A DNA stretch of 64,000 nt from Flectonema sp. DT1601 (Eukaryota): positions 434,001-498,000 of the forward strand of contig OZ025799.1 in NCBI GenBank assembly GCA_964019425.1, read 5' to 3'. The first letter of the stretch is position 1. Every line of letters starts with the position of its first letter. Position numbers and translations under genes: made by a program. Shown here piece after piece: positions 1 to 54,402 of this stretch. Under the pieces are notes generated by a model, which had not been told where the DNA came from, did not search any database, and was given only the letters and a program-made list of their open reading frames with translations.

Positions 1-413
1 TTAGGCATCTGATCTTCTTTATACCAAGCAATATCATAAGTAAATGGATTAAGAGCAACAGTAATAGCCCCTACATTGGTATAAACGTAATTGGATATAA
101 ATCTTTTTCTAAGAACATGAAGAAGTGTTGAATCATGAAGTACTGTCAAGTTCAGTAAATCATGAACATCTTCATCCAAAACTTCAGCATTCGTCACACA
201 ATAAACTTCTTCTGCTTTCAGTTTTTCGTACAATCTTCCTGTTTCCCATTTGGCAACTGGATTACTGTTTTCTTTTGCTTTGCATGTTGCTAGTTTTCCA
301 TCCCATGTTTGCACAGTTCCCTGAGTCCAACCGTGTTTTTCATCATCACCGTTGATGTAAAAAAGACACGGAGACCCTACGTCAGGTTCAAGAAATTCTT
401 CCTTCGGAGGCAT
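1..413 (-). CDS. Myosin heavy chain, 5' part (N-terminal SH3-like region and start of motor domain); continues beyond the left edge
   Basis: Not in the ORF track. Manual translation from the ATG at 413 gives MPPKEEFLEP...EDVHDLLNLTVLHDSTLLHVLRKRFISNYVYTNVGAITVALNPFTYDI, matching the myosin motor start motif (DL..L..L....LL..L..R.....YT..G...VALNPF). Confidence 0.9.
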   Translation of the reverse strand, partial: MPPKEEFLEPDVGSPCLFYINGDDEKHGWTQGTVQTWDGKLATCKAKENSNPVAKWETGRLYEKLKAEEVYCVTNAEVLDEDVHDLLNLTVLHDSTLLHVLRKRFISNYVYTNVGAITVALNPFTYDIAWYKEDQMP

Positions 414-2133
414 TCCTACATCGACATCTGTTCAGACTGTGATGAGAAACAATAAATAAAAATAATAAAGAGACGGTCACATCTTATTCAGAGTGAGAAG
501 ATTCCTTCAAAAAATATTTGATATTACTTTTTTGATTGCAAAAATCTCACTTGTCAAGCAGACCATAATAATAACAGTTATTTTATTTTCGTTTTTTCGT
601 TTTTTTTTTAAGTTCATTTTTATTTCTTTTTTTTCGAAACGAAGAATCCAATATATCCACAGCCTAGCAGCTGAACGTTTGACAAATTAATTGAAGGATG
701 AGACTAACTTGTTCAAAGCCGCTTTCTTAGAACTCCAAAAAATGTTAGTAAAAATGTACAAAACACAAAACAAACTCATAGTTAACAACCGTGGATAAAA
801 ATAAAATAAACAATCAAATCAATCAATGAATTGTTATGACAAAAACTGACATCGGATTTGGGTCGCAGATATGCAACACTAACAAACTGATGAAAGAAAA
901 AAATTCTTTTTTTGTCGGAGGACCCAATCAGTAGCGTTCCTAAGACTCCGTATGGAGGTTTTTTTTTTTTTTTTTTTTTTCGGACTTCGCCAGTACAAAA
1001 AAAAATATATAAGCAAGAATAAGAAGAAAGAAATGGGAAAGTTGCCAGTTGACAGTGTAGGAATATTTCCTGAACTCGGAAAGCCAAGGTGTGGCAGAGA
1101 GAGATCCCTCTTAATAGGTACAGGCAGCACCATAAGCAAGCACACAAATAGTTATGCTATTTTAACAAAAAAGAATAACTAGAACAAAATAATAATTGGG
1201 CAAAGAAACTTTGCATAGCTTTTTAGCTTTTTCTTAAAATAAGAAAGAAAAAAAAAGGAAAGGAATCGGACCACCCTTTTCTGTTTTTTTTTTTTTTTTT
1301 TCCCACCCCCCCTTTTTGTATGAGTACGAAATATTCACTTACAGTCACCGGAGATTAATTGGGCTAACAAACAATAAGTAAAGCAATATTTACACAAATC
1401 TACTAAAGAAAACAGCAAACCCACTTTTGTTGTCAAAAGTTGGTATCTGTCTATCCTATTCTACTTACAGTATTTTATTGTGACTGCATCACACTAGGAG
1501 GGAAGAAAAGAAGGGAGGGGTGAAAAAGAAATTGAAAAACCAACGGGTGCCATTGTGAGGTAACTTTAGAATATTATTTAGAAAACACTTTCTGATACAT
1601 CAGGGAAGTTTTTCCAAAAAAACAATAATAAAAAAAATAAAAAAAAAAAAAAAACAAGATCTGCATCAGCAAAGCTGAAAGAACAACAACTTATTTTTTG
1701 TAAAGACAGACAAATGAGAAGATAAAAACCCTAATTGGATCCATCCAATTCCATTAAAATAGTTTCCGAAATCGTCAACTCATCGCAAAAGAAAATCAGG
1801 CATCAGAACCACAAACAGAAAAAAGTCCAATGGACTAACTGTCGAATATTAAACACCCGTACACTAAGGTTTCCCTTTCCCTTTGAACTATGAGTCACTC
1901 AGAAGGAAAAGCCAGACTCCAGGAAAGGCTCACAGTCAGGTGACTTTTCTTCTTATTCTCTGAGTGGTTCAGGCGTGTTAATTACAAGTAACTTTCCACA
2001 ACAAAGTATTACATAAATTAATTTGACCACCAATCGCGCAATCACTGATCATCGGGTAAACTCTGTAGAGCTACGCATGCATATTTGGCTGTTAGAGCTC
2101 CGAAAGCTTTTTCTTTTTTTTTTTTTTTTTTTT

Positions 2134-2342
2134 GCATCGACGAAGTCGGAGAAGAAACATATTCAGATTAAGAGCCCCGTTTATTTAGTATGTCAAATGT
2201 TATCTATTTCCCCGTGCCGCTAGTGATACTGTGTGGGATCAATATAATATAAGGTTGTATTTGAATGGGGGTTTTTCTTTTTTTTTTTGCACCGACGAGG
2301 TCGGAGAAGAAACACATTCAGATTAAGAACCCGTTTACTTAT
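2134..2342. repeat. Two ~55-bp direct repeats (about 2134-2188 and 2289-2342), each next to a poly-T run; may be retroposon 3' ends on the minus strand
   Basis: GCA(T/C)CGACGA(A/G)GTCGGAGAAGAAACA(T/C)ATTCAGATTAAGA occurs twice. On the minus strand each copy ends in a CCGAC/GTCG hairpin followed by poly(A). Confidence 0.55.
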
Positions 2343-3239
2343 GATCTTCGAAATGTAATTTAATTTCATGTGCGCGCTCACGTTTTACTATCTGCGATCA
2401 ACAATTTATTTTAACCAAATTAATAAGAAAAGAAATAAAACTCTGATAAAGAAGAGAAGATAGAAGAAAACCCATAACAGGGTACCCCCCGATAGGGATG
2501 AGAGTTCCAGAATATAGTTTAGCCAAGAAAAGACTCACCGCTGAATGTTAAGTCAGTTAAAATACAAGTTTGAATAACAGTGCATTGTAATATAAAATAA
2601 AACTACAAATAACAACTTGTGGTGCCCAACAGTTTGTTCGTTTGTTTGTTTGCTATAATTTAGGATTTATCAACAAACTCACAAGCAAGAGATAGCAGGG
2701 GGACTGTAAGGGAGAGAGCAGGGACTTGCAGCAACAGAAAAAACACTACAAATATAGCATGGAGAAACAAAATTAAAAAAAAAAAAAAAAAAAGATTTAA
2801 TTATAAGAAAAACAGCTTTTAAAAAGACAAACTTCAACGGACACGCTAACAAAAAGAGAGGAGAGAAATATTTTTAACCTGTCCCCTTTGCCCAGGATAG
2901 TTGGTACCAGTACAGCACTCGGATTAATTAGCGAGGTTTTTTCCACACAAATAATACTTCTTTTGTAAAGAGATTCTTACCGCTGGCCTGTTGGTACTCA
3001 GAAATAATAGAGCGATTCTTAAAACTGTAACAGTTTTTTTTTTTTTTTTTGTTCTCGCACAATAATATTTTTTTTTTTTTTCAAAGTGCAATTTATGTTT
3101 GGTGCAGTTTGTTTTTTTAGATTTTGTTATGAAATAACGCACTGAATCAAAAAAAAAAAAAATAGATATAAAAATTAATATAAAAAACATTTTTAAAAAA
3201 AAGGTTCAGAAAAACACATTGTTCTGCTGTCCCGAAATA

Positions 3240-3301
3240 CGTAGCTTTATGAGCCTTGATCTTATACTACTTGTCTCCCTTAAGGCAAGTTGTGGGGACT
3301 T
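3240..3301 (-). pseudogene. Degenerate copy of the hammerhead-like RNA at 3734-3801 (CUGAUGA deleted)
   Basis: Minus strand reads AAGTCCCCACAACTT-GCCTTAAGGGAGACAAGTAGTATAAGATCAAGGCTCATAAAGCTAC. It keeps the GTAGTATAAG substrate strand and the stem II arms but has lost the catalytic heptamer. Confidence 0.6.
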
Positions 3302-3361
3302 AATTCCTTTTTTTTTTTTTTTTTTTTTTTTGATAACAAGTAGTAAACACCATGAGATATT

Positions 3362-3445
3362 AGCAGGGGGGTTAACTGTTTGATTTTGTACGTAAAATAC
3401 AAATGTTTTGTATCATAAAAAACATAACGAGCATAGATATTAGCA
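3362..3445. repeat. Dispersed ~80-bp repeat, also at about 31428-31505 and 31700-31775
   Basis: GGGGTTAACTGTT.GA.TTTGTACGTAAAATACAAATGT.TTGTATCATAAA.AACATAACGA is shared between the loci. Confidence 0.7.
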
Positions 3446-3517
3446 GGGGGGGGAATAATCAAAAAATCAAATAAATCGCAATGAAAACAAAATAATAGTT
3501 AAGAATTGGAATCATTT

Positions 3518-4070
3518 TAATTAGTTAGCGAGCCCGACATACTATCGAGTTACTGGTTAGATAGACACAACAGGGTGGAACGGTTAACCACCTGTGAGTC
3601 CTCAATACCATTTTAAAAAGTTAGTTAGTATCATTAATTTTAGAACAGAAAAGTGAGAATAAGAAAAGTAGAGATCAATAAAAGAAAAGTATTCATTTCT
3701 GCAGTTTCCTAACATCAAAGGGTAATAGAATATGTAGTTTCAGGCCTTAATCTTATACTACTTGTCCCTTTTTAGGCCTTCATCAGTAAGTTCTAAGGGA
3801 CTTCATTCTATGTTGAAGTTGCTATCGTTCAAAGATAAAAATCCATCGGAGCTCGCCAGGATAGGGCTAGCAATGTTTATTTGCTTTTGCTCAATTTGAA
3901 TTTTTGACGTCTGGTCGTTTCACTATTACAGTCGAGTTAATGGATGAGTCGTTAAAAAGTTAGTTAGTTAGTTAGTTAGTTAGCGAGTCCGACATACAAT
4001 CGAGTACCGGTTAGCTAGACACGACAGGGTGGAACGGTTAACCACCTGTGAGTCCCCAAATACTACGACA
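3518..4070 (-). repeat. Two copies (about 3518-3608 and 3955-4070) of a ~90-bp retroposon-like 3' end with a stem-loop and a (TAAC)n tail
   Basis: Minus strand reads GGACTCACAGGTGGTTAACCGTTCCACCCTGT...ATGTCGG(A/G)CTCGCTAACTAACT... The tail length differs between the copies. Confidence 0.6.
3734..3801 (-). ncRNA. Hammerhead ribozyme-like RNA with non-circularly permuted topology; predicted cleavage after GUA, between 3756 and 3755
   Basis: Minus strand: GTCCCTT-AGAA-CTTA-CTGATGA-AGGCCT-AAA-AAGGGAC-AA-GTAGT-A-TAAG-ATTA-AGGCCT-GAAA-CTAC. The core CUGAUGA/GAAA/GUA is complete. Stem I is CTTA:TAAG, stem II AGGCCT:AGGCCT, stem III ACTAC:GTAGT, with an extra helix GTCCCTT:AAGGGAC. Confidence 0.7.
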
Positions 4071-4863
4071 TTATGTCAAACCTAATCCCTGAGAGGATCA
4101 CTTTTTTAGCTCCAGCGAGGAATTCTAATGTTCGAGAGACCCGAATTCCTCAAAAAAAACCAAGAGAAGCAAGTAAGACGAACAAAAAAAAAAAAAAAAA
4201 AAAAAAAAAACAGGTTTTTAACTCAAATAAAAAGCTTTCAGATGCTACCCAGCGAATAGACCACGAAGCTCCTTTTGTAAACACCTAACCCAGATCAACA
4301 TTTTTTTTTTTTTTTAATATTCGATTTTAAAAAAAAAAAAAAAGAAATACAGAGATATATCCGCAATCCCCCCTGCGGGAGTACACAACGTGTTAGGCTC
4401 ATTAAAAGCCTTCCAGAATTATCCAATAGTTGGTTGCTCAGAAACTAAAACAGAATAACAAAGTCGTCAACCAAAATACTGATCTACTACCTACCTGTGA
4501 GAGAGACTCTTGTCAACTTCACATTTTTCTATCAAAAAAAAAAATTAAAAATATATGGGAAAAAGGCGACTTGGCGAGTTAAAAAAGGTTAGGGGAAAAT
4601 AATAGTAGCTGGAATCATACAAGAATAGAACAAAAAAAAAAAAAAAAAAAAAAAAAAATTACGATGGAGAGTCGCTTATTCTACGTAAAAAAGTGTTTTG
4701 AAAACGTTAGAACCATCTGCTTTAGCAAAACGGTTTATAACTGACACTATTACAGAATCAGAGACGTTTAAATTAATCATTTTTATAGGAAACACGACAA
4801 TCTGACAAAAAAAATAAACACTCCATCTGTTCATCGAGGTGAGAATGTATACGAGACTATTGG

Positions 4864-4895
<32 letters not shown>

Positions 4896-5540
4896 GTTGG
4901 GGGAAAGTTATTATTTAGCTCTTATCCAATGTACCCGTAAAAAATCAGGAAAGAACACTACGCACGTCAGATAGAAAAGCACCAATTGAAATGAAAGGAC
5001 AGCAAGCTGAGATACTACAAAGGAACTGGGAAAGTATGAGGACATAATCACAAAGGTTATTGGAAAGGGGGACGCAAAAAGGAAAAAAAAAAACTCGCCA
5101 ACCCAACCCGAAAGATGTTGTAACAGCAAATATTGAGTCGGAGGGTTATTGCCGTACTAAGCATGAAAATAAATATAAAAGTAAAAAAAAAAAAACAATA
5201 AGCTAGATAAATAAACGTATTGAGACGGGGTACATCATCCTCCCAACACAACGGAAATACTTGCAATCCTAAATGCGAGAGAGGTGCACCACGAACATGA
5301 CCCGATGGTTAGCAAGGAGCGGTCATCCATGCACCAAGAAAGTCATCTTTTGTTGTTATTTGTATTGTTGTTATTGTTATAACACAGACGATGTCGTCGT
5401 CTGCAAGTTAAACAGAACTCAGGCAGCGGTATATTCATTTACAACAAACGAAAGAAAATGATTAAATCAAACTACATCTACGAAACAGCTGATTTTCCAA
5501 AAGAGTAAACTCTACGGCTGCCACGCACTTTCTTTAACAG

Positions 5541-6683
5541 CTAGCTATCATTTGGTAGTGCTGCTCGTCCACAACGTTCTCTTCTTTCAGTCATAGATCT
5601 CGAGAATTGAGCGATATCAAACGATTCTATTGATGTACATCCTAACAAAAAGAACCTTCCGACTGATATAAGACTCGATAACGACGGTAAATTAATAGTA
5701 GCTGTGCATTCTCTTAAAAAACAATCACCAATACTAACAACGTGTGACAATCCAGAAAACTCGATGTCTGAAAGTGATTTGCATCCACTAAGGAATGAAT
5801 CTCCAATAGAAGTGAGTTGTGTAAACCCTGACAAGTCAATCGACGCTAGAGATGCACATCCATGTAAAAATTCATTTCCAATACAAGTAACGTTACACAA
5901 TCCTGATAAGTCTACACTCACAAGACTGCTACAACAATATAAAAATTGATTACTTAATCGCTTTACGTTTTTAAAAGATGATAAATTGAGAGATTGACAG
6001 GCAACTCGAGAAAGAAAAAAACTTCCAATCGTCTGGACCTGACCAAGCGGCTTTAAATCTAGGTCTCTGAGTGCAGTGCAGCTATCCATGAAAGAATCAC
6101 CTATATGTTTTACGTTATACAATGAAGATAGACTGAGCGTCTCTATGTGATTCGCACTATGTAGAAAATAATCAGAAATAACAACTACATTGTTATATCC
6201 AACTAAATCACATGTTGTTATTTGTTGAAATGCTAAAAAGCACCTTCCGAATGAACGTATCTCACAACAGTTGACGAATGATATCCTTTTTAGTGTTGTT
6301 GGGAGGTATTCCGTTCCGATTATAAGAGCATCTTCTTCATCCTTAAATGAGTGAGCATCCACAGTAAACACTCTATCACAATGAGTTGAGAATAAATTAT
6401 TTATTTCACCCGGTCTTCCTTCTTTTAGCCATTCATTTTTACAATAAATCGTTCTTTCCTTTTCAACAATCATCAGTTCACTGTCACCCTGAACCCCATG
6501 AGATAATACGTCACTTGTCTCTGGATGGAGTACGACTCCCTCATATGACACGTCAATCATGTCAGCAGTAATTAGCCACTCTGCTGCTACAGCTTTTAAT
6601 AAATCTTTAACTACACTATCAGGCTTTAGCTGCAGGACTATACCTGTAAAGCTGGTTCCTGGAAACTCAATGCTGACGTTCAT
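5541..6683 (-). CDS. Ubiquitin-like domain plus leucine-rich-repeat (BspA-like) protein, ~380 aa
   Basis: The likely start is MNVSIEF, after an A-run. A UBL-like N-terminus (VVKDLLKAVA...IDVSYEGVVL) is followed by ~24-aa repeats L..IDLSG...VT.IG..FL..C.SL. Confidence 0.8.
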   Translation of the reverse strand: MNVSIEFPGTSFTGIVLQLKPDSVVKDLLKAVAAEWLITADMIDVSYEGVVLHPETSDVLSHGVQGDSELMIVEKERTIYCKNEWLKEGRPGEINNLFSTHCDRVFTVDAHSFKDEEDALIIGTEYLPTTLKRISFVNCCEIRSFGRCFLAFQQITTCDLVGYNNVVVISDYFLHSANHIETLSLSSLYNVKHIGDSFMDSCTALRDLDLKPLGQVQTIGSFFLSRVACQSLNLSSFKNVKRLSNQFLYCCSSLVSVDLSGLCNVTCIGNEFLHGCASLASIDLSGFTQLTSIGDSFLSGCKSLSDIEFSGLSHVVSIGDCFLRECTATINLPSLSSLISVGRFFLLGCTSIESFDIAQFSRSMTERRERCGRAALPNDS

Positions 6684-6870
6684 ATTTTTTTTGATTTTTT
6701 TTTTTTCTTTTCCCCTTCTTTTTTTTGAATATAAATAATGACCACAAAAGAGTACTAACAAATGAAGAGAAGAATAAGCAATCGGAGAAAACAATTTCAA
6801 AAAAAAAATCAAGTCGGTAGGATACAATTCACTAACGTAACATAAAATTAACAGGTTCTTCTTTAAATAC

Positions 6871-9800
6871 CTATTCTCCCATTCCAGGTTTTGGAAGCGA
6901 TTTTAAGGTGTACGGTCGCTGACAAACTCGAGCAAGACGACGTTTCGTATTACCGGCTAGTAATCGAAAGGCGTGTCGAACTTTCTCGGCTGACGTGTTC
7001 CCAAAATCCTCTCGAAACACAAAGAAAACTGATGGAAGCCAAAGTGTATTGGTTTCTGGATCAACAATTAACTGCGTCCCCCACTGCAGAGATTTACTTA
7101 TGATATCTTTTAAGGCACTGTCCAACTGTTTTTTTTTATTACTTTCTGACGATCTCTTTCGATAAAACCCTTAAACAAATACAGTAAGGTTTAGATAGCA
7201 TACCGATACAGCATCCAGCACAATATCAATTGGTGGTTTTTGAACAGTTTTCCTTGAGGCTCCCAAAAGAACTTCGAAAAAGGAAAGTGGTCGAACTTTT
7301 AGATTTTCTTGAACAGCCTCATCACCAGAGCTGTCTGTCGAACTGTTTATTTATTTATTTATTTTTTTTCTGAAAAAAAAAAAAAAACTGAAAACAGTTT
7401 TGATAACTGAATACTACAACTACATACCCACAGTCAGCATTGTGTGGATCGACAGGTTGGTTTTGCTTAGTATTGGAAGCCACTCGTTTAACGGACTTGT
7501 TTCGGGAGAAATCTTTACCAGCTGAAGTAGCCTTTCGAGGTGTGGCAGTACTTGCAGGTAATTGAGAAGAAGGAGAGCTATCAACGTGCGATGAGTTTAC
7601 ACGGCTTCTATAAGATCCGTGCGAACCAGAGCCAGGACTGCTTGATCGAGATTCGTCATCTTCTACAACAAAGTTTGGCAAGTCATCCGAAGTAAGTCGC
7701 AGCAATGCAAAGTGAATGCGAACATCTAATTCTGTCACCGCTAATAACTTTCTCGGATCATCTGGTGCTAAAGGTCTGAATAATTTATGTGTTAAGATCC
7801 TACTATCGACATAATGACACGGACCTCTTCTATTGCCTCTCAAAATACCATTCTGAATGACATTTAACGACAATACATAACCACCAACATTATATGCGCT
7901 GGTACACAAATAGACATCCTGATGAACTGAAAATGCTCCACCGATAATGAACTGTGCGTGTATCTCCAATACGTTATATATGTTCACCCAGAAAGCAATT
8001 TTTTGATGGTCTGTCACTAAGTCAGAAACTTTTATAGCCTGAAGATCACATGCGAGATCTGTCAATGATTCGAATACAGACGATCGAATATATAAATGTA
8101 AAGCCTCGTTATCTGATCCATCTAGAAATGCTCGATACACACTCAAAGCTTTCTTCAAAAGTATTTTTGAAAACTCAACTGGAGTGCAGGCATGCAGCTT
8201 TGCATTTTTTGACACGTTCAAAACCCTAAGTTTTTCATCATTCATAAATCTATATATCCTAAAAGAGTCTTGAAATTTTGATACGGTCATGTGGGTGTTG
8301 CTCTGGACGACATGATGAAATATTCCACTTTGGAGGAGCAAGTTCAACAAATCGACAACCCGCTTTCTAGGACTCGGGTGATGTGTTATAAATTTCCTAT
8401 TCAACTGCAAACCTTCGATATTATCGAGAATAAAATCAATCGCCTGTCTGGCTAAAAATGTATTTTCAAAAACTTCAACTCGGATGTGAGAACTACTGTC
8501 AGCCTGAACATTTTTTAATTTATGAGGATTTCCAACATTACTACCTCGAACATGTCGGGTTCTGTCTTCTGTAACAAAACCAGCAGTCAAGGCTTCTACT
8601 AAAGATCTTAAATGTGATTCTAGTCCTGAATCTGATACTGGTACTTCCAGGTATGGTGTGAACGCCATTTGAATTTCTTTTAATATCGAACCAGAATCTT
8701 GCTCTGGAAAGTAAGTTCCATACTGGAGTGCATCTGCTTCAATAGCTGTCATTTCTTCTTGAACATTATGAGGCCTTGCTAGGTATCCCTCATATTGTAA
8801 AGATAGTTCACTTAAAGAGCGAACCTTCTCCTCGTTTGGATCAATCTGAAGTGTTTCCATTGCAGTGTATGATTCATACTTTGAAAGACTCCTTGGTTCA
8901 TGTTGTTTTAATTTCAACGCCTGATTTTGCAAATCAAGGAGTCTACCAGCATTGAATTGATCAGCACCACAGACTAGTGACTTCACGGTATAATTTGTTA
9001 ACCACGCCTCCTTAGCTTTCGCATCAATCTTTGCCGCGTAATGTTTTGACTGCTTTACTTCAGCTAAGAATGATTTCCATGGAGGAAATGACAACTCTTC
9101 GTAGGCTTGTTTTTCAAATTCAGTTCTTGCTGAACAGTATTCAGTGTATAATTGATAATTGTCTGCGGGGATGTCTTCGATTGTTTCTCCTCCGTAGTCC
9201 CTTCCTCCATTAAGAGAAAAGGGTCTTTGAGAAAAACTCCTAGCAGCGTTTACTATATCACCCTCAAGTCTTTTAATTGGTAACAGATAAGGTTCTCTTG
9301 AGCTGAACTTACCTTCGAGCTGTTGGCGTAGAATTTGAAGTTGATTTGAAGGCTCTGGTGCATCAGTTAAGTAACAAGTGTCTTCATCTGCCGTTAGTGT
9401 TGAGAGGTGAATATGTTCAAGAGATGATAAAAACTCATTCGGGTATCGAGATTGAAGAGCGTCGTCTCCTCCTCGAACAATCTCCTTTCTTTGATTTGAA
9501 AATTGAAGCATCGATTCAATTCCGTGATACTGAGTATTCTGTTGAGGACTCGGTGATAATAATTTCCAACTTTTCTGAAACCGAACACTGTCACCCCAGG
9601 ACCCTACATGACTTAGAGTTGGTGATGACGTGTCTATGTTTGAACCGACTTCGAATATGTCCTTCTCTATTGCATCAGGCGGTTGTCTTGGTAATTTAAT
9701 TCCTGATGAAATCTTTTTAATGAAAGTATTATTCGGCGACATCATTAATAAACTTTGATTCGATTTCATCACAGACAATTCCAAATGAGTTAACCTCCTA

Positions 9801-12174
9801 GCTGCCCACATCAGTAACGGAATTTCCCACCATTTCGCACTATTCAACATTACAGGTGGTGCTAAAAACCTCTGATTAGAATCTTGTAAATGTAAATAAT
9901 GATCATTTTCAATATCCCATAAGTCGATAACTCTCCTCTCTTCAGGTCGATCATCACCGGGATTGGCTGATTGCCCAGCAGGTAAATTTGGATACAGCTG
10001 AGGTGAGTTTTGAGATAAATTATCACCAGAGACTGATCTAGAGATAGGTACCTTGCCGCTGACTTCTTCAAAAGACCCTCCAAAAGAAGTATTTTCCATT
10101 CTATTTGATGACTTCTCTCTGATATTCCAAGGGAATGAATACGTAACAGAAGTACTCACCGTTACTGGATGACCCTTTCCTTCCATTGTAAGAGGAGATG
10201 AAAGCCTTCCTGTTGCATTCTGAGATGAGAGAACAAACTTAGCAGGTCTTTGAAAAGCGTATGTCGATGCTGTTTCAATTGGATCCAAAGGATCGATAAC
10301 GGTAGCGTCATCATCAGTAGTGTCAGCGATACTCACGTGAGGAGTGTAGTTTCCTAAGAATATGTTCATCGATTTCTGTTTTTCCAAATCTAAAAAGTTA
10401 TTATTATAATACCTCGTCAGTGATGTGAATACATCCCACCTGTTTAACAACGAGGGAACACCTGCTGACACAGCTCTACTTCCACCGTACTGTAAAGCTA
10501 TTCTATCACCCATTTGAATACAATGCGAGAGATACAAATTATATACAGATTGGTGATCTACTAAATGTGTTCCTCGATTCGATACGCCCAGGAATGCGAA
10601 TTGATGTGACAAGGCGCATTTTCCAATAAAAAATTGTGCTAAATTAGTTCTGTCAAGACAATCAACACAATTAGTTCTCACGGCTCCTGTTTTTGTTTTT
10701 GTTTTTGTTTTTTTTTTGATTTGTTGATTTGCTACTTGTTACAGGGACACCCAACACCCAAATCTAGATAAAACGAGCACTCTGTAAGGGAAGTAAAGCA
10801 CCTTCCCCATGCCAGTACAAAATTCAAACGGAAAAAAAAGTTAATCAACAAACCTGTTTGTTCTCGTACACCAGAAGCAGAAGTAAAAATACCCGTTTTT
10901 GATAAGATTTCTTCAGCTATGCTCGTCATTTCATTGTTTACTGTCTCCTGTGCCTTAGAAGCATTGCGAAAGTCCCACCTAATGTGAAGTATTTGACAGT
11001 CATTAGGAAGCCTAGAATTTAGAGCTCTGATTGCAGCACTGTATTCAGCCCCAAGGATACTTTCTCGTGGATTCTTTTCTTTTTGTTTGAGAAGATCTAA
11101 ACTAATGATTGGAACTCCATAAGATGAGAATAGCTGTGCGTAGTGAAGTTTTGTTGCTGCGAATCCTGGGTCTGAACGACCTAATTTTATAGGTGGTCGA
11201 GGTCGGTGAACAACTTGATCTTTTGTTGGTTGATACCAATAAATTGGAATAGATCCGCGAACCTGAACAAACGAAGAAAATTTACCAACAGTTCCAGACA
11301 ATGCTAAAGCAGTATCGTAAGAGATTTGTTCTATTTCGATGTGATTCGCGACAGTACCTTCTTCAGATATTCCTCTTTTTAAGTAACGAGTTCCTGCAAA
11401 GTATCTTGATCTCCGTGCTACAAGAATCAGATGAATCTTTCTTCCATAAACATTAAAGACCATTTGAGATAAGTAACCATGAATACAAGGAAGTATCCAC
11501 GGGGAGTTACAATCTCTCAGAGCAGTCTGTAATGGTCTCAATAAGAATGAATTATATATAAACATGGTATCAGTATGCGCCATCTCTGGTTGTTGCTCTG
11601 CCTGTAGAGCATTTCTTTGACAATTAAACTGAAGGGAATGAGAAATGTCGTATGTGTAGCTGAAGTAGAAATCTCTTTTCGTATCAAACGAGAGAAACAT
11701 ATCTCTGTATCGAGTCTCGTCGTCTTTAAATGTTCGCGCTGATAGTTTTGCAGATGTACATGACAGTGGAATAGTTTCAGTATCCTTTATTTCATAAATT
11801 AAATGAGGTCCAAGTTGAGCAACTAATTTTCTTCTTGTTATAACTACCAGATTATAACTTTTTGTAAACCTGACAGTACCGAGAATCCCATAACCAGAAA
11901 CAAGATGACGAAAACCACCACCTCCTCCACCTGTCTTTCCATTAAAAGCAGCCTTTAACGTGTCCAACAGCATTCTGATTTGAATGGTTGAGTAGATCGT
12001 ATTATCTTCAGAGATGCTTAATTCTTCTTCTGATCGACGATCGAATTTTAAAACTCTGAAATACTGTTGATTCGCATCACACGCTATTACATATAATTTA
12101 GGTAGCGTCTCATAAATATCGTACAGTTCCAGGGCAGGTTTGGCGCCAGGAATCGCGGCTGCTTCGCAGCGCAT
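6871..12174 (-). CDS. FIG4: FIG4/SAC3-like phosphoinositide phosphatase fused to DEP and DUF547-like domains; 4 exons (12174-10854, 10686-7428, 7342-7204, 7125-6871), 1657 aa
   Basis: SAC motifs ARRSRYFAGTRYLKRG and SFVQVRGSIPIYW are present. Splicing restores the catalytic QTG|AVRTNCVDCLDRTN. GT-AG introns 10853-10687, 7427-7343 and 7203-7126 join in frame (4974 nt). Confidence 0.9.
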
Positions 12175-12324
12175 TGTTGATTCCCACCTATGAAAATAAT
12201 TATAAATTCATCAAGACGTACAAGACTGTTTAATAACAATAAGGCTACCAAACAAATTAGGAAAATACATCTGTTGGGGTAACAGAGTCAGCCAGCCAGT
12301 AGAAGTAAACGAGCTCGCATGAAG

Positions 12325-12355
<31 letters not shown>

Positions 12356-13539
12356 CCCCCCTTCGTCTTTTTTTTGAAAAAATTATTCTTTCTTTCTTTG
12401 TTTGTTTGGTTGGGCCGCAACCATCTCCGATTGTGATTGCCACCTGAAGTGCGTCTTTCGAGTTATCGAAATGGGTACACAAAAGTATGTCGTACTTTTA
12501 TCTTCTTCTCTTCATCACGTACTCAGCCTTGAAGAACGATGCGTGTCTGCAGCTCTAAAATAATAAAAAGCTGACTCGTCCTGAACAACACAACAGAAAA
12601 AAGAAATTTTCTTTTTTTTGTTTGGGAGACGGGAAAAAATAAGACGCGAATATAATAAGGAAAGGTGGGCAACAAAATGGGCAGGTGTGTTTATTTTTTA
12701 TTTGTTTCCTTTTTTTTTTTTTTTCATGGTGTGTTTTTGGGGGATGCGAAGTAAAGAAAACGACAATATATAGAACAACGAAAACTCTCTCTTTGGCAAA
12801 GAACAGTAAGAAAAACGAGTCTCAGTCGTCACTTTCTCAACACCGAACCCACTCCGCAGTTTTTTATTTATTTTTTTTTTTTTTCAGAAAGAAAAACCAA
12901 GATGGTCAGCCACAAAAAAACAGGCATAATTACGCCCTTCTTCATAGTGCGTGAATTCACGCAATCGAGTGAAAATAGTGTGAACACACCAAAAAAAAAA
13001 AAAAAAAAAACATACACAGATAAAGACAACCGTGCAACAAAGTGCAAGAAGGCTAGGACATTGATAAGTTGTATATGTTGTCACAGTCATCATTCTCACA
13101 CCATACAACATTACATCTGTGGTTAACTTGACGCGGGTAACACAAACATAATATCAAACAACTGCATTCACCGGCGGAAATAAATTTAAAAAAAATAAAA
13201 AAAAAATTACTATGGCTCAGTATGGGACAAAAAATGAGGAAGAAGCAGAGGTACTGCTTGTAAAAAAAAACAGGTTTCTTTTATTTTTTTTTTTTTTTTT
13301 TTCAAAATTTCAACATACGCAAGAATAACTGAATACCATTACCAAGTTGATCCCAACTCAATTCAGTCGTATCCATTCGTTGTGCGCCTTGTGAAGATTG
13401 TCAGCTTAGCAACTACTCCTTGCGAGAAAAAGAAAAAATTGGGGGAAAAGGAAAAAAAAGAGAAGAAAAAAAAATTTAATCGCGTTTTATAATTTTTCAA
13501 TGCTCTCCATGTCTGTGCAGCCTATTGCTGGGCTGATTC

Positions 13540-13571
<32 letters not shown>

Positions 13572-13827
13572 CTATTTTTTCCCCCTTAAACTCAAGAGGA
13601 GTGGCAAGCTGGATAAGTAGACTACTATGTTATTGTTTTTTTCTAATTATTATTTAAAAAAAAGGTCAGGCACAACACTTCTTGAAGAATGGCGAAGAGC
13701 GTTTTGATTCCCGAAGCTGCTTCTATTTTTCGGATTTAATAATTGACATCTTACCTTTTTGTTGTATATCGGAGTCGGGTAGTTGCCTTTGATCTGAAAC
13801 CGTCTTGATGACGAGCAGCGGAGGGGA

Positions 13828-14544
<717 letters not shown>

Positions 14545-14800
14545 GTTGTGTGGTGCTGAAGCAACAAATTTTTTTCTGATAAATCATAAACAAGATAAAA
14601 GAAGAACAGTACTCCAACACTTTTGTTATTTAAAGTAACCTGTGAGAATACCTTTATCAATAATTTCTAATTTAATTAAAAAAAAGAAAGGAATAAAAAA
14701 AAAAATAAAAAAAAACACCAATGGACCAGAAGAAGAAACTAACCAGTTAGGGGAAAGGGATAATAATATCGTTCTATTGCAGAGGAGCTGCTGATTTTTT

Positions 14801-15064
14801 TTAACTTAATTTAGCAATTGCTTCTTTCATGTATTTTAATTTCTCTAAAGAAAGATCATCCGTTGCAGTCATTGCCTTAATTTGAGTGTCCAGGTCCTCC
14901 TTCTCAAGTTTAGCTCCGCATAATAATTTCACTATCTCTGCAGTCCAGTCTTTTGGATTTTTACACGCCTTAGCTAGAGCTGTTTCGTTGTTGGTATCTT
15001 TTTTTGTTAAATCAGCACCTGCCTCAATTAACATCTTTACTATTTCTACATTATTATTCGACAT
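14801..15064 (-). CDS. Small ankyrin-repeat protein (87 aa; possibly a fragment)
   Basis: NNVEIVKMLIEAGADLTKKDTNNETALAKAC matches the ankyrin consensus. Confidence 0.7.
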   Translation of the reverse strand: MSNNNVEIVKMLIEAGADLTKKDTNNETALAKACKNPKDWTAEIVKLLCGAKLEKEDLDTQIKAMTATDDLSLEKLKYMKEAIAKLS

Positions 15065-24231: not shown

Positions 24232-27162
24232 TCACAAATCTTTTCCATCTTCAGTCCAGAAGTAAGGAAGCGGAGAACCCAAACGATGAAGTCGACTTAT
24301 TATTTTTATTGTTGGATCCAGGTCAAAAGGAGACATCGAAGCAACGTCACCCGATATAAAACTAGTAAATACTTCTTCGAAAAAAGGACCATAACCTTCT
24401 ATAACACTACACCTACCAGTGGAATGATATTCCAAGAGCCCTTGTTTTGATATTTGCTTTATGTCACCACAACTTGGAATGCTTCCAATAATTCTGCAAA
24501 TCACTTGTAAAGTTGCGTCTCTCGACAGTCCAGCAAATCTAAGTATTCTTTTATTCGAAACTGTTAGCGCAAAAGCATCGATATTACGAGCTAGTGTAGC
24601 CATCTGAAGGGAATAGTCCAGTGGGTCACCTGTGATAGTTTGATATTTCTTGTGTCTTCCAATAGTTTTTTCAGTCACATTTCCAGTTTGAACTCCACAA
24701 TTACTTTCAAAACCGGAATTGGCAACCGCACCGAGGAATTGAGCTGCTGATCTGTAGTGTCCTTTACAAGACTTGACAAGTCCCCAACTAAATATTAAAG
24801 TAGAGCCTACGGTATGATGAAGCATACCATCAGTAGATGACAACGATGGAGACAAAAGAGACATAATATTCAATAATTGTGGAGCACTTTGTGTGTGAAA
24901 TGCTACGGCAGCAACCGTACACAAGGTACTGGAGACTAGAGATCTTGCTCCCACGAAGGAAGAGCTTCGAGCTATGCTTCGTCTTCCCAAGGTAGACTGA
25001 GCTGGTGATATGTCCCTACCAGATGCTGATAACATCACTTGACGATCAAGGCAACAAGACATTACTTTTAATTTCCTTGCACGTAAAGCTCTCGGTAATA
25101 CTCCATAAACGACATTAGGACCAGCAATACACTCTACTATAAAAATATCAATATCCAATTCATCAACAAAAGGTAGTATTCTTTCATACACAGGAAATGA
25201 TATCAAAATCATTCCACCAGCACCACAATTTTCTAAATAAGAAGCGTAAGTAACAGTGTCTCCGTGGTAATCAATACGACCAGTGGCCTCATCAACTTCA
25301 TGAGACGCGAAGCCGCAGTTGATGCCCATCCGTACCTTCAAACCCCTCCAAATGAGCGTATTGTTCGATTCCGGGTCGTATTCAGTTAGACAAGTAACTT
25401 CATCGAGTAGAGCTGTTGGCCAATCAGCTGATATTAAACCAATTTGAGCGTTAACACAGAACTTAACGGCGTTTACAGTACTTTCAAAGGCGATTTGAAA
25501 TGCGTCTCCGATAACTTTAACTTCATACCCTTGATGTTCTGACAGCAGGGTTCTCATTAGTCGATTATGTTCGAGGAGAGCATCAGCCATGTCTGGACAA
25601 TTCTCCCACAAAGATGTACTCGATTGGATGTCGGTGAAGGCGATTGCGATGTCCCCGTCGGGTGCTGACGCGACTGATTTAGAAGAGAACAGCCCAACTG
25701 GTAAAAATGGTTTAAAATAAATCATCGAATCAAGTAACCTATGCAGTGCTGGTAACACTTCTACTTGTGGACTATCTTTAGTTGATTCTAACATAGCAGT
25801 AGTCGCATCCACATCGAAATCTGATAACTTTTCTAAACAATCTTCAACCAATTGATGACCTGCTTTGTGTGCCTCAAGGTCTGCTACTGATTGACGCATG
25901 ACGACATAAGCATCTAGTTTGTGATACGCTACATCAATTCCTTCCTTTTCAGCAATATCTGTAACGGTTAAACGAATGACTGAGTCGGGTATCTTCTTGA
26001 GAATGAATGCTGCACTTCCCATCAAGACTGAAGTCCAACTTATTATTACTACGCAACCGAGAAGTTGAACAAGAAGGGGTTCGATGTTGCCAGAAATCAA
26101 AAAACCGGAAGTGATCGAACGCTGTGGGAAGTACTGAGCCGCGCGATTGGTATTTGCGAAGAGTCCGCAAGCAACAGCAGACCAGATTCCGACCATGGAA
26201 AATATGGACAAGACTTCAAACCTATCATTAAAGTATAACGACACTTTAAAGTGTACCCCAAGTGAATAGATGGCTGCACCAACACATCCGATGAATGGAA
26301 AAAAACACAAATCAACAAGCCCAGCACACCCCTGTGCCGCAACAATCCCAGCAATTGTAACTCTAGCACTGTAGATAACAGAAGCATTGTCATTTAAAGT
26401 TTTTTCATTTAGTTGACAGATAATAATAACACCAAACAGAGCTGCTGAGAAGGCACCCAACGAGATACAACAAGTGTAGTGAACAGCTGTGAAGACATTA
26501 CCGTTGGTGGCACCATAACTTGATACACCAACCCATATTAAAAATAATCCAGCGGAGAATAATAAAATATTATGAGGAGAGGGCTCCTCTGAATGTCTAC
26601 CTCCCATTACAAGAGAAATGACACCCCCAGCTACACCACTCGAAATGTTTATAAGTGATCCGCTGCTGCTGTCCAAGAAACCGGAAGTTAGTAAAGTGCC
26701 AGAGTTATTATTTGGTGATAGAAAGCTGTAGGAACGATCTCCTTCCATCCAACATAAAAGCATTGGAAATACCAATCCAGTAAACAACGAGACTAAGATG
26801 ATATACGAAACCAGATTTATATGTTCAGCAACAGCACTTGATATAATACAACAACAAACGTTTATTTTACTGTAACTAGTAAGGAATAGTATTGCTTGTG
26901 AAATATCAGTGTCGGTTACAACATCAGGAGCACCAACTAGACTAACACAATCACCAGATCCCATATATATCCAGAATCCAATAGTAAACCAAACTACTCC
27001 GGTTATTCCAATGTCTAAAAGATTTCGTAAAGAGGTATCAACTGCGCTTGTCCACTTAACGACTCCAACCTCCAAACAATAAAAACCAGGCCTCGTCATT
27101 AACGATAAGAAATATCCCATCATCGATAGCATTATTTCCTCGGTTAAAGGTTGCAGCATCAT
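24232..27162 (-). CDS. Ammonium-transporter (Amt)-like domain fused to class III adenylate/guanylate cyclase domains, 976 aa
   Basis: The N-half is Amt-like (PGFYCLEVG, IISSAVAEH, PHNILLFSAGLFLIWVG, QLLG...AEKEGIDVAYH). The C-half has IAFTDIQSSTSLWE, GYEVKVIGDAF, GLKVRMGINCG and IDYHGDTV, then a second degenerate cyclase-like region. Confidence 0.88.
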   Translation of the reverse strand: MMLQPLTEEIMLSMMGYFLSLMTRPGFYCLEVGVVKWTSAVDTSLRNLLDIGITGVVWFTIGFWIYMGSGDCVSLVGAPDVVTDTDISQAILFLTSYSKINVCCCIISSAVAEHINLVSYIILVSLFTGLVFPMLLCWMEGDRSYSFLSPNNNSGTLLTSGFLDSSSGSLINISSGVAGGVISLVMGGRHSEEPSPHNILLFSAGLFLIWVGVSSYGATNGNVFTAVHYTCCISLGAFSAALFGVIIICQLNEKTLNDNASVIYSARVTIAGIVAAQGCAGLVDLCFFPFIGCVGAAIYSLGVHFKVSLYFNDRFEVLSIFSMVGIWSAVACGLFANTNRAAQYFPQRSITSGFLISGNIEPLLVQLLGCVVIISWTSVLMGSAAFILKKIPDSVIRLTVTDIAEKEGIDVAYHKLDAYVVMRQSVADLEAHKAGHQLVEDCLEKLSDFDVDATTAMLESTKDSPQVEVLPALHRLLDSMIYFKPFLPVGLFSSKSVASAPDGDIAIAFTDIQSSTSLWENCPDMADALLEHNRLMRTLLSEHQGYEVKVIGDAFQIAFESTVNAVKFCVNAQIGLISADWPTALLDEVTCLTEYDPESNNTLIWRGLKVRMGINCGFASHEVDEATGRIDYHGDTVTYASYLENCGAGGMILISFPVYERILPFVDELDIDIFIVECIAGPNVVYGVLPRALRARKLKVMSCCLDRQVMLSASGRDISPAQSTLGRRSIARSSSFVGARSLVSSTLCTVAAVAFHTQSAPQLLNIMSLLSPSLSSTDGMLHHTVGSTLIFSWGLVKSCKGHYRSAAQFLGAVANSGFESNCGVQTGNVTEKTIGRHKKYQTITGDPLDYSLQMATLARNIDAFALTVSNKRILRFAGLSRDATLQVICRIIGSIPSCGDIKQISKQGLLEYHSTGRCSVIEGYGPFFEEVFTSFISGDVASMSPFDLDPTIKIISRLHRLGSPLPYFWTEDGKDL

Positions 27163-31114: not shown

Positions 31115-33610
31115 TTTAACATCCTTATTTGGTATTACTGAAAAGGGGAAAAAATTAAAATAATCACCACCCGTCATCAACCATCAGATCAAAGGCTTCA
31201 ATTACACTCTGTGACCTACCTACAGCCTGACATGCTGTGTATGACCTAATAAAGAATAAGGTAACTTGAAACAGGCTAAAACCTCTGATTCTCACGAGAA
31301 TCTTCCATAGCCTGATCAAAGGAAAAGGTTTTCCCTACTTGGGGGTGTCCTTTTCCAAAAAAAAAGTAATCCTGAGGAAAAGTCTAATCTCCCTCTCAAC
31401 TGTCAAGTATCGCCCTGTGAATGAAAGTGGGGTTAACTGTTCGAGTTTGTACGTAAAATACAAATGTATTGTATCATAAACAACATAACGATAATTTAAC
31501 ATTAGTTCTGAGATACAGTTGACTAAAGGTAATGTTAGTGTAGGTATACACTCTGCGATTGACGTAAATACTTTACATTATAATAAATGTTTCTAACTTT
31601 GCTGCATACACATCTCTTTTTTCCGTGTTGTCATTCAGTGCAGTACGGAATCGAGTTATTCAATTTTGAATTAATCGTGAGCCCTGGGAAAATGAAAGGG
31701 GGGATCTATGTTCGATTTTGTAAAAATTACAACTGTGTTGCATCATAAACAACATAAAGATAATTTAACATTAGTTTTAAATACAGTGACTAAGGGTGAT
31801 GCGCATGTGAATTAATCGTGAGCCCTGGGAAAATGAAAGAGGGGGTTTGAAGGTTTATAACACATCATAAACCACATCACTATAAGAATATCAAGTACCT
31901 TCGTCATCTCAATCAGATTTTACTGATTGTGTTTGATCTATCTTACAATTCTTGGGCGAGGAAGAGGAAGAAATGAAAACCGTCGCAGAAGTTGGATTGC
32001 GCAAGATACTTAATACCTACTAGTCAAAACATTAATTAAATTTTGGTAAAGCGAATAAACGATGATTATAAAAATGAATACCATCGTCATAGAGTTTACC
32101 TATAAATTGTGATTTTTTGTAGTTTGCGCACTCAGACAAGGGGAGAGACATAAAAAAAATAAAAAAATAAAAAAATGGAAACAAATAATAATGTGAAAAC
32201 TGGTCACAAGATGGCATCGCGTTTTTTACCAATAACAATCCCAATCACATCACTTTGACATAATAAAAAAAGGTAATAAAGAAAAAAAAAAAAAAAAAAA
32301 TTGAAAGAAGTGAACATGGGTTTTTTTTTTTTTTTTTTTACAAATGCTGAAATAAATTATGATGGTTTCCGCAAACATTTTTTTTCATTATTGAAAAAAA
32401 GAATTGCGTAAATAAAACATGGTAAACAAAACAAAAAGTTTCCCAGTTTTTATTGAAGCCTTTAGTTTTTTTTTTTTTTTTTTCTCTTCTTCTTCTCCTA
32501 TACCGGTCTTTGAAAGAAGAGAAAAGTGAATAAACGCAACACCAGTAGTCAAGAAAAGAGGAAGAAATGCGGAGAGGAAAATATAGTAAATATGGAAGAC
32601 CCATGAAATATCAGTTTGATATCAAACTTAGATGCAGGAAGCAGGAACATCGTTTAAAAAAAAGAATAAAAAAAAAACTAAAATTAAAATTAAAATTAAA
32701 TATAAAACCTTAATACTTTACACTGACTGACAGTGCAATGACCAAAGGATAATTTTTTTCATTGTTTTATTTTTTTTTTTGTCTTTTCAACATAGTAATA
32801 ATTTAAAAAAAGAGTTATTTGCAATTAGTGAAAGCTAAAAAAACAACTGACGAAACTTCGAGAAGTGCGGCCAGCCAAGAAGCATTCAACGTTACTACAA
32901 TTCTTTTTTAAAGAAAAACAAAATGAGCTCAATATTCAATTCTTGGTTCTTAGGTGCCTGCTGCTTTATGGTTTTTTTTTTTTTTTTTTTTTGTAACCTT
33001 TCGTCTGCTCATCACATGCGAAACAAGCAATCAGACGACAATACATAACAGAAGAGAAACTGCACAAACACAGCATCTCTTTGTGTCTATAACAAAATTG
33101 TTGAAGGGAGGCTAATTCTTTTAAAGAATAATTTCTTAAAAATTCCTTTTTTTTTTTGTCTTCCACCAAACAAATGTGAAGAATGTGAAATAATTTTGAA
33201 AACACGCGACGGCACACAAATAAAACCACATCAAAACAAGTTCTCACTGTGAAATTACCATGGCCTCAGCGTGTTTCGAAAGGGGACAATGAGAAATGTG
33301 GATATCAATAACAGCGTGCTAGTAGCGGAATTCAATTGGAGTGCGGCTACAAGCAAGCGGTTGACCTCAGTACTTCATTAGCATGAGATGTTAATTAAAA
33401 AAAGTTTTTAAAAAAATGTATACTCTTCAGTTACATAGTTCGTGTTGCAGTCGTTGGCTCAGATGCAACAACCTAATTTCTATTTTTATCAAATGGCGTA
33501 CAACTAAAATGTTTTTTTTATGTGATTCATTTGCTGTTCACTTCTACCCATCGCACCGACGAAAAGTTTTAACTTCCTCTCTTTACAACTTCTTACGTTC
33601 TCTGAGCTCA

Positions 33611-36600: not shown

Positions 36601-37419
36601 ACCAGGTGACATCGACTGGCCAGCAGGTACAGAGGTCACGGAACCAGGAGACATCGACTGGCCAGCAGGTACAGAAGTCGGCACGGAAGTCGGTACGGAA
36701 GTCGGTACGGAAGTCGGTACGGAAGTCGGTACGGAAGTCGGTACGGAAGTCGGCACGGAAGTCGGTACGGAAGTCGGCACGGAACCAGGAGACATCGACT
36801 GGCCAGCAGGTACAGAGGTCGGCACGGAAGTCGGCACGGAAGTCGGTACGGAAGTCGGCACGGAACCAGGAGACATCGACTGGCCAGCAGGTACAGAGGT
36901 CGGCACGGAAGTCGGTACGGAAGTCGGTACGAAAGTTGGCACGGAAGTCGGCACGGAAGTCGGCACGGAAGTCGGCACGGAAGTCGGCACGGAAGTCGGC
37001 ACGGAAGTCGGCACGGAAGTCGGTACGGAAGTCGGCACAGAAGTTGGTATGTTCGGAATACACTGTGATTCTCCAACAGTTGTGTTCATAAAGCAATGTT
37101 CACCAACAACACACTGTACCAATTCACATGTCTCCATACAACTATAGTCGCTGTACTTTGTAATGTATTCACATTTAGTATAAGGTTGACAAGGCTGACC
37201 ACAGCTGGTAGGTGGGGTCGTTGCGGTACAGTTACCAGCGCCGGTTTGGTCTGGTGTGCAGGTTTCCCCCGACTTGCAAACTTTGATAGCGCAAGTTTCC
37301 CTACACCGGAAAATTCCTGAAATAACTTCACCGCAGACAGTGTCTGTTGGACATGTTCCACATTGAGCTGAAATTCCCAAAAACTGCGCCACTAGCACTA
37401 TGGCGAAAATCAGACGCAT
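33611..37419 (-). CDS. Cys-rich/mucin type I membrane protein 'A', copy 1; exons 37419-35956 and 35746-33611, 1199 aa
   Basis: Signal peptide, Cys-rich modules, PTSV/PAGQSMSPG repeat stalk, repeated YDC...W.....CC....GC modules, TM segment and short tail. The GT-AG intron 35955-35747 joins DPCE|PNPCPDTTIC in frame. Confidence 0.88.
36235..37050. repeat. Coding minisatellite of 12-bp (PTSV) and 42-bp (PAGQSMSPGSVTSV) units
   Basis: GGAAGTCGG(C/T)AC and GGAACCAGG(A/T)GACAT(C/T)GACTGGCCAGCAGGTAC(A/G)GAGGTCAC arrays are directly visible. Confidence 0.95.
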
Positions 37420-38527
37420 TTTTATGAGTGACTTATGAGTCTTTATGAGTAAACTGTATTTGTTTGGAGTTATAGATAAATAGGTTCGTTACGTAACTGG
37501 TTCAGCACTTTGTTTTAATTAATACGGTCGTGTGATGTATCATGTTTTCAGGGGAATATAATAAATCTTGTACACGACAGTAAACGATAAGAAAAAGGGA
37601 GGACTACACAGAGAATTAATCCCTTGTAAAAAAAGACTCAATGGTAATTAGGTAATTCACATTTGGTGTTTATTCTCAACAGTACAATGAAGTATGCAAT
37701 GCACTGAGTTAGTGGGTTTATTGGGTATCCCGCTTAAGATGATCTGAAGTGTGAACAATAACAAAAAGTCAATGATAAGTAATTACCTCCATGGAGGGGA
37801 CAAACCATCACAACACCAACACCAAGTATCATAAACACAAGAAAAGCTGAACGTGGGATAGCTACGATATGAGTAGAAGTAATACCAAAAAAAGGGTACA
37901 GACAAAATAATGTCCATCGGGAAGTTGATTTACCATTTAGAGAGGAAGATGGGAGGCAAACCCTCGTAAACGAAAAACGAATCATCGAAACAAGCTGACA
38001 AATATTTGATTCGGGACAAACCTTTTATTTTTTTATTTTTTTTTATTTGTCAGAATGTGCGGACGGTCGTACAAAAACACGAGAGCATGCCTGCACAGAA
38101 TAGAGAGAAACCCAACAGTAGTTTACAAGGATTTTTTGTGAGGTATTCGTAACTACAAAAAAAACAGTTTTGCCTGATCAAAACCTCGCTTGAAGGTAGG
38201 CAACGATGGGCTACAAACTTCGAGACCTATCAGCTAACTGAATATTGTCCAAGAAAATACAACTAACTCGACGGGTTGAATGCGACGTCATAAGTCCTCA
38301 CTATTGGTAAGTCAGCTATCTCTCTTAGTAGAGCGCCATCATGTATGAAGCTTTATTATATTACTACACAATGCTACATCACAAAAATGTTGTGCTAAAG
38401 TTGATTTCAAAGCGTGAATTTCCGGTTCGGTTTGTGACATTTTTTTTTTTTTAAACAACACTTTCAAAGGTTCCAAACTAAACAAAACACCATTGTGAAA
38501 TAAGATTGATTTATCAAAATATGAACT

Positions 38528-52104: not shown

Positions 52105-52270
52105 CCTCGGACGCGTTGGGGTCTCATTTTCTTCTTGCGCTTCCTTTTCGGGCGGGTTAAAACCATTTGCCCATGAATTTAACTACCATTTCAACAGGTT
52201 ATTTACTGAAATATTTGTTCTAAAAGTTGCTAAGTATTTCTCACTTAGAATTTTTTTATTTTTTTATTTT

Positions 52271-53164: not shown

Positions 53165-53166
53165 TA

Positions 53167-54008: not shown

Positions 54009-54012
54009 GGAG

Positions 54013-54370: not shown

Positions 54371-54402
<32 letters not shown>

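Follow-up and report, generated by a model that had tools for sequence, protein, structure and literature searches.

Does the spacer between an LRR protein gene and a myosin gene of Flectonema sp. DT1601 encode a self-cleaving RNA, and if so, of which class and in what kind of element? The locus lies in a window of 64,000 nucleotides (contig OZ025799.1, positions 434,001 to 498,000), to which all coordinates below refer. A preliminary description had reported hammerhead elements on the minus strand. We found CUGAUGA, stems I–III, GAAA and GUA at the minus-strand coordinates claimed there, together with the 7-bp fourth helix (3801-3795 with 3770-3764) and a fifth, outer helix that had been overlooked. 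The putative domain is composed as follows:

3725..3811, minus strand: whole candidate type-CSG hammerhead domain (87 nt, five helices)
3804..3811, minus strand: 5' strand of outer helix P0 (partner 3732-3725)
3795..3801, minus strand: 5' strand of the joining helix between stem I and stem II (partner 3770-3764)
3787..3790, minus strand: strand of stem I on the 5' side of the core (block C)
3780..3786, minus strand: catalytic core CUGAUGA (C3 to A9)
3774..3779, minus strand: 5' strand of stem II, palindromic, first base A10.1
3764..3770, minus strand: 3' strand of the joining helix; next comes AA, a 2-nt linker that CSG-1 has too
3752..3761, minus strand: block S (stem III strand, GUA triplet, stem I strand), predicted cut at 3756/3755
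3734..3747, minus strand: block G (3' strand of stem II, GAAA, 3' strand of stem III)
3725..3732, minus strand: 3' strand of outer helix P0

Stem I pairs 3790-3787 with 3755-3752 (4 of 4 Watson–Crick), stem II pairs 3779-3774 with 3747-3742 (6 of 6, beginning with A10.1-U11.1, both strands being the palindrome AGGCCU), and stem III pairs 3761-3757 with 3738-3734 (5 of 5, including A15.1-U16.1). Together with the joining helix, all 7 pairs of which form, these stems contain 22 of 22 Watson–Crick pairs. The outer helix (3811-3804 with 3732-3725) adds 8 bp, seven Watson–Crick and one G-U, and closes the entire domain. GAAA is found at 3741-3738 and the cleavage triplet GUA at 3758-3756. Linkers of 4 nt lead from the joining helix to stem I and from the stem I strand (3755-3752) to the stem II strand (3747-3742), 3 nt separate stem II from the joining helix, and AA precedes the stem III strand. 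Within 414-5540, the minus strand has no CUGAnGA other than the CUGAUGA at 3786-3780. By the criteria of PMC3088659 the core is complete: C3 U4 G5 A6 N7 G8 A9, G12 A13 A14 A15 and U16 H17 are all present, and the required pairs 1.1-2.1, 10.1-11.1 and 15.1-16.1 are U-A, A-U and A-U. Hammerhead numbering predicts cleavage after A3756, between 3756 and 3755.

Eckert, Friedrich, Weinberg and Weinberg described hammerheads in 2023 as three blocks, C, G and S, and named six orders of them (PMC10085705). The nested three-way orders CGS, GSC and SCG (types I, II and III) do not match this locus. Its order is C-S-G with each block uninterrupted, which agrees with the definition of type CSG, and the 7-bp joining helix and 2-nt linker agree with the alignment of this type. 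The preliminary description had placed the order outside types I, II and III, which is borne out. It was also right to call the hammerhead non-circularly permuted, but the topology does have a name, since it is that of the published type CSG (Eckert et al. 2023, PMC10085705). By sequence and pairing, 3725..3811 is a type-CSG non-circularly permuted hammerhead, predicted to cleave and very probably able to do so.

The topology itself is therefore already known from Eckert et al. According to the accessible part of that article, the published type comprises five sequences from soil DNA, of which two are unique and similar (CSG-1 and CSG-2), with no host given; both cleave in vitro at the predicted site, slowly (0.004 and 0.026 per min), and the describers graded the type "likely valid" (PMC10085705). 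The motif described here shares with CSG-1 and CSG-2, as far as their alignment is given there, the block order, the position of the I–II helix and the 2-nt linker to stem III, with a length of 68 nt compared to 66 nt. By eye, stems I and II and the joining helix consist of other letters than in CSG-1 and CSG-2 yet are paired, and stem III has A-U in place of U-A as its middle pair. Unlike letters and a swapped pair within the same wiring mean that both families support one architecture. In contrast to CSG-1 and CSG-2, the closing pair 10.1-11.1 is A-U instead of G-C, the cleavage triplet is GUA instead of GUC, stem I has 4 instead of 6 bp, stem II is palindromic, and the joining helix is flanked by linkers of 4 and 3 nt where they have none. 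The 8-bp outer helix, which creates a three-way junction, is absent from their alignment, which stops at stem III. Finally, the setting is not soil DNA but a multi-copy repeat on a contig of about 1 Mb (998,751 nt) from an assignable eukaryotic host.

In the usual hammerhead, the 10.1-11.1 pair is G-C. The G10.1-C11.1 of the published search patterns, a search setting rather than a stated defining feature, is replaced by A-U at this locus. PMC3088659 ranks 10.1-11.1 as the most conserved pair after 15.1-16.1, accepts any pair at this position, and reports a natural U-U. The two CSG patterns, as printed in the accessible part of PMC10085705, demand CUGAUGA(U)G and CGAAA and allow no more than 10 nt from stem II to stem III; the motif has A, U and 12 nt. 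A related order occurs in type-SGC hammerheads (HRIMA-1 and variants), which are a circular permutation of CSG; these ribozymes are described as lying near hairpin ribozymes in metatranscriptomes and are thought to belong to circular RNA replicons (PMC10085705, in part). In the literature searched, we found no report of a CSG hammerhead with the A-U closing pair, the GUA triplet, the outer helix, the palindrome or a eukaryotic multi-copy setting. The same search, with most subscription journals outside its scope, returned no natural hammerhead for diplonemids or Euglenozoa and, among the matches listed, no second paper naming type CSG.

A chance origin of the five-helix motif is unlikely. A descriptor for all six block orders matched both strands of the 64 kb only once, at 3725..3811, at each of four stringencies, and gave 2 matches in 60 shuffled windows at the 4/4/4 setting. 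A CSG-only descriptor matched locally dinucleotide-shuffled windows 5 times in 1414 with stems I–III of at least 4 bp, once in 1414 with stem II and the fourth helix of at least 6 bp each, and never in 1414 with a fourth helix of at least 6 and an outer helix of at least 7 bp, although these thresholds were chosen with the motif already known, which makes the control somewhat flattering. Rfam gave no match at gathering score in the window, and in 2400-4600 no hammerhead match at E ≤ 5, only three weak unrelated ones. Such silence is expected for the CSG order, which nested models cannot represent. The warning that standard descriptors would miss the motif proved correct, also for both published CSG patterns.

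In folding calculations, a 96-nt piece outdid all but one of its 200 shuffles (z -2.85; plus strand, z -0.82). In contexts from 96 to 866 nt, the ensemble is dominated by the nested helices, namely the outer helix, the joining helix and stem III. The joining helix has pair probabilities of 0.81-0.87 and stem III of 0.75-0.99; the outer helix has a mean of 0.92 in the 96-nt piece and 0.50-0.62 in longer contexts. The program cannot add stems I and II because they cross the nested helices.

We also scanned viral (54, at least 120, and 65 loci), metagenome (28) and GTDB (24) collections with CSG patterns. None of the 291 matches listed had stems I–III of at least 4 bp, and two loci (L055 and L078, which share one sequence) passed at 3 bp. 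The first 82 loci showed no resemblance to 3200-4100 by blastn. The patterns fixed most of stem III and the collections included no eukaryotic genomes; the scans therefore say little about the spread of the type and allow for distant CSG hammerheads. L078 is an AT-rich contig; at 2052-2000 (minus strand) it carries a hammerhead core whose blocks follow the order C-S-G, and L055 has the same sequence. This core has good stems I (4 bp) and III (6 bp), a weak stem II (3 bp), and a hairpin in place of the I–II helix.

How could such an RNA reach an active fold? As computed, the outer helix, the I–II joining helix and stem III would fold first and produce a three-way junction with two open loops. 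One loop of this scaffold would present block C and the second loop blocks S and G. By analogy with CSG-1 and CSG-2, the loops, most likely those of a single molecule, may then dock so that stems I and II form as pseudoknots and the usual core of a hammerhead is completed. Hammerhead cleavage proceeds by Mg2+-aided attack of a 2'-OH, and its products end in a 2',3'-cyclic phosphate and begin with a 5'-OH. The outer helix connects the end of the I–II helix to that of stem III, with linkers of 2, 2 and 1 nt, which implies that these ends are near each other, a point left open by Eckert et al.

Because stem II is palindromic, docking on another molecule would be energetically equal, which makes a strand-swapped dimer a real rival. 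In such a dimer, the core loop of one copy would engage the cleavage loop of another, and neighboring copies of the two subfamilies introduced below (A and B) would cut each other. Both stem II strands are the identical palindrome, and by calculation a loop–loop duplex is as stable with a foreign partner as with the molecule's own (-11.1 to -11.3 kcal/mol). A monomer would have to thread two helices between two closed loops, and the short CSG linker connects places that are far apart in the crystal structure, which puzzled Eckert et al. (PMC10085705, in part). Cleavage by dimers has also been reported for small Penelope-linked hammerheads, judging by a title in the reference list of that article, and the differences observed between the subfamilies lie in the scaffold helices, which would stay intramolecular. 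On the other hand, CSG-1 and CSG-2 cleave during transcription with a non-palindromic stem II, according to the accessible part of PMC10085705, in which no test for dimers appears; like-with-like kissing of palindromes would trap dead pairs, and the stems beside the core are conserved for other reasons too. We consider the dimer unlikely and retain the intramolecular ribozyme as the preferred fold.

The surroundings of this putative ribozyme are repetitive:

3619..3952, minus strand: repeat element of subfamily A, about 330 nt, 5' end probably cut short here
3841..3872, minus strand: upstream motif common to subfamilies A and B (X2 record 5 and its loose end)
3972..4059, minus strand: direct repeat R1, 89 nt, ending in (CUAA)6 at 3983-3960
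3517..3605, minus strand: direct repeat R2, sharing 91% identity with R1 at a period of 455 nt
3210..3301, minus strand: decayed second copy, subfamily B type

The hammerhead domain is located between the 89-nt direct repeats R1 and R2. The second copy lies 0.5 kb downstream, with its cut-site position 491 nt from that of the first. An 11-nt deletion has removed its whole CUGAUGA and its GAAA is altered, while block S is intact. Parts of the stretch also occur in four unrelated public runs (X1–X4), in all cases as contigs, aligned at 80% likeness. Two overlapping contigs of X1 match 3619-3952 with zero differences. Diverged A-type pieces occur in X2, X3 and X4, and subfamily B in three of the four runs (X1, X2 and X4). 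The 3' flank of subfamily B is that of the decayed copy in the window, whose flank at 3240-3210 matches that of intact-looking copies in X1, X2 and X4.

Subfamily B keeps the layout of A with changes in the scaffold. As read from loose ends and joint letters, each strand of its joining helix has lost one base and one pair of the outer helix has changed from A-U to G-C; the outermost pair has disappeared or moved. Another two substitutions fall somewhere within 3728-3795, at positions that the tool did not give, and may affect the core. Covariation within the family is thin: the outer helix contributes one compensated pair, the joining helix one deletion on both strands, and stems I–III none. 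The motif at 3841-3872 (about 30 nt) is kept in both subfamilies despite spacers to the ribozyme of 45 versus 72 nt, and a U-rich tract follows both. This motif could form a small H-type pseudoknot, with a 7-pair stem containing an A-G mismatch and a loop pairing to a 3' GGAU.

The 5' junctions vary, from 3952 in the window to 3896 and about 3872 in X2, and each lies beside (CUAA)n. The minus strand of the 64 kb contains only three (CUAA)n runs, at 3983, 3628 and 3528, all of them in this block. A 7-bp hairpin that is complete in X1 lacks its 5' arm at this locus. The runs carry the repeats but almost no flanking DNA, and their missing coverage of R1, R2 and the flanks is no evidence either way. 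In X4, an A-type copy is followed by sequence that by eye resembles the 3' half of R with a different inner hairpin. R itself shows no folding advantage over its shuffles (z +0.35 and -1.07), and as a candidate second ribozyme it was rejected, fitting by eye neither HDV-like, twister nor pistol layouts.

The repeat copies also bear on whether this putative ribozyme would cut. It could be the once-active ribozyme of a now inactive repeat, with a real fold that in this copy cuts too slowly or never. This would be consistent with the A10.1-U11.1 pair, with a stem I of only 4 bp that is rich in AU, with the low rates published for CSG (PMC10085705, in part), and with the decayed copies nearby and in X2, where two bases are inserted into stem II of an A-type copy (record 7, depth 3). 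Record 12 of X3, a metatranscriptome contig covering 3697-3889, crosses the cut site uncut; it has no listed difference in 3718-3811, differs at 3717, 3812 and 3831, and diverges beyond 3889, one of three substitutions not being located by the tool. Since contigs cannot show ends and may derive from DNA, this record is only a weak sign of uncut molecules, or else of DNA. In this copy, however, all core bases and every pair are intact, the identical sequence occurs in an unrelated run, and the domain shows no listed change in a copy with diverged flanks. An inactive copy is quite improbable.

In what kind of element does it reside? A retro-mobile repeat leaves such traces: intact copies beside diverged, truncated and dead ones, joined to their flanks at varying points. 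The link to a retroelement raised in the preliminary description was apt. As a full reading, we propose that the locus is probably the type-CSG hammerhead of a short non-coding, likely retro-mobile repeat in a diplonemid-like protist. No target-site duplication was seen by eye around R1 and R2, no reverse transcriptase or autonomous partner was found among the 10 window ORFs scanned with Pfam, and a tRNA search of the window gave no hit and hence no tRNA-derived head. The two copies in the window belong to different subfamilies and have other repeats between them, and so may be independent insertions rather than a head-to-tail array. The neighboring copy is dead, and a cut within the intergenic spacer would probably be neutral to the host.

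The accessible parts of bioRxiv 10.64898/2026.07.22.740005 and PMC8557442 describe non-LTR retrozymes and Penelope-like elements as short non-coding hammerhead repeats that are tandem or solo and 5'-truncated, and Naiad and Chlamys as showing microsatellite-biased insertion and direct repeats from partial tandems. The repeat described here is likewise short, hammerhead-bearing and likely non-coding, with direct repeats, copies that are probably 5'-truncated, and insertion that may be biased to microsatellites. It differs in that non-LTR retrozymes and Penelope-like elements are described as carrying type I hammerheads (type III in plant LTR retrozymes) rather than CSG. Moreover, Naiad and most Chlamys elements are said to have no canonical hammerhead, and in the accessible parts of both sources no retrozyme or Penelope-like hammerhead is reported in Euglenozoa (bioRxiv 10.64898/2026.07.22.740005, PMC8557442); for the repeat in the window, no partner enzyme was identified. 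Tandem units with an intact type I hammerhead, which characterize a non-LTR retrozyme, do not occur here: the order is CSG, and the second copy is core-less and of the other subfamily. Non-autonomous Penelope-like elements are marked by a pseudo-LTR from a partial tandem, 5' truncation and microsatellite-biased insertion, and by 3' similarity to an autonomous element with a reverse transcriptase and a GIY-YIG endonuclease. The first three may be reflected here in the 89-nt direct repeats that flank the element, R being a possible part of it, and in the 5' junctions that vary at (CUAA)n.

Under the retro-mobile reading, cleavage of a read-through polycistronic transcript would set the element RNA free. 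A reverse transcriptase supplied in trans might then copy this RNA into (CUAA)n/(TTAG)n sites, along the lines proposed for retrozymes and Penelope-like elements. A more specific proposal, which we regard as rather doubtful, is an undescribed diplonemid family of microsatellite-targeting retroelements with a three-way-junction CSG hammerhead, in which neighbors would be cut as strand-swapped kissing dimers and release a circularizable RNA of unit length.

A second repeat family occupies 3365-3430, 31426-31491 and 31697-31760, the copies 28 kb away being 92% and 79% identical. It occurs in all four runs, where loose ends continue as near 31,500, which identifies the copy at 3365-3430 as a fragment. 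This fragment is flanked by a duplicated C-run motif at 3450 and 3370.

The gene neighborhood bears on both the host and its possible use of the ribozyme. The genes in 1-15,000 lie on the minus strand and encode a ubiquitin-conjugating enzyme (by eye), a SAC/FIG4 phosphatase, an LRR protein that ends at 5541 and a myosin that starts (ATG) at 413. The FIG4/SAC protein best matched a EukProt name beginning Hpha (459 bits), followed by the name RCo, with at most 324 bits from the third match on. We take Hpha to be the diplonemid Hemistasia phaeocysticola and RCo the euglenid Rhabdomonas. This one homology search and the style of the genes make a diplonemid the likely host. Elsewhere in the window, 24232-27162 (minus strand) encodes an ammonium transporter fused to an adenylate/guanylate cyclase domain. 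A tandem duplication at 32,900-46,300, with a period of about 7.2 kb, contains genes for cysteine-rich membrane proteins, one with variable Pro/Thr/Ser repeats. The region 50,000-64,000, which may be a cluster of nested transposons, is dense in long inverted and direct repeats (592-nt arms are 98% complementary) and has ORFs without clear Pfam matches.

The putative ribozyme lies between genes, 3.3 kb ahead of the myosin ATG, on the strand that is transcribed. The host might have domesticated it to process a polycistronic transcript between the LRR and myosin genes; co-transcription and maturation by trans-splicing are presumed for diplonemid genes (PMC10161547, in part), and a U-rich tract follows both subfamilies. 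However, the myosin gene has its own U-rich tract and an AG at 438-437, 25 nt upstream of the ATG, which would be its likely trans-splice acceptor, and copies of the ribozyme occur in other flanks and as decayed relics. Kinetoplastids discard the spacers during polycistron processing anyway. The role in cutting the transcript upstream of myosin that the preliminary description had offered is unsupported by this arrangement, and a host-domesticated cutter seems highly improbable.

Last, a chance match or a box C/D-like RNA is scarcely credible: UGAUGA (3785-3780) and CUGA (3743-3740) resemble the two boxes, and euglenozoan small RNAs do sit in repeated clusters, but none of the 1414 shuffles matched with all five helices, the inner stem in that register is unpaired and the outer stem 2 bp long (by eye), GAAA, the triplet and stems I and III are left unexplained, and Rfam has no match, which led us to reject the box C/D assignment.

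These results add an unrelated sequence with CSG wiring, present in several copies in a chromosome-scale eukaryotic assembly, which strengthens the class and supplies a biological setting for it. Since the published patterns fix G10.1-C11.1 and a 10-nt linker, relaxed patterns applied to eukaryotic genomes should find more examples. The two helix ends whose nearness puzzled Eckert et al. are joined by the outer helix, and this RNA is therefore well suited to structure determination and to deciding between monomer and dimer. Should the proposed family of microsatellite-targeting retroelements prove true, it would give Euglenozoa their first mobile element with a hammerhead and the CSG permutation its natural home.
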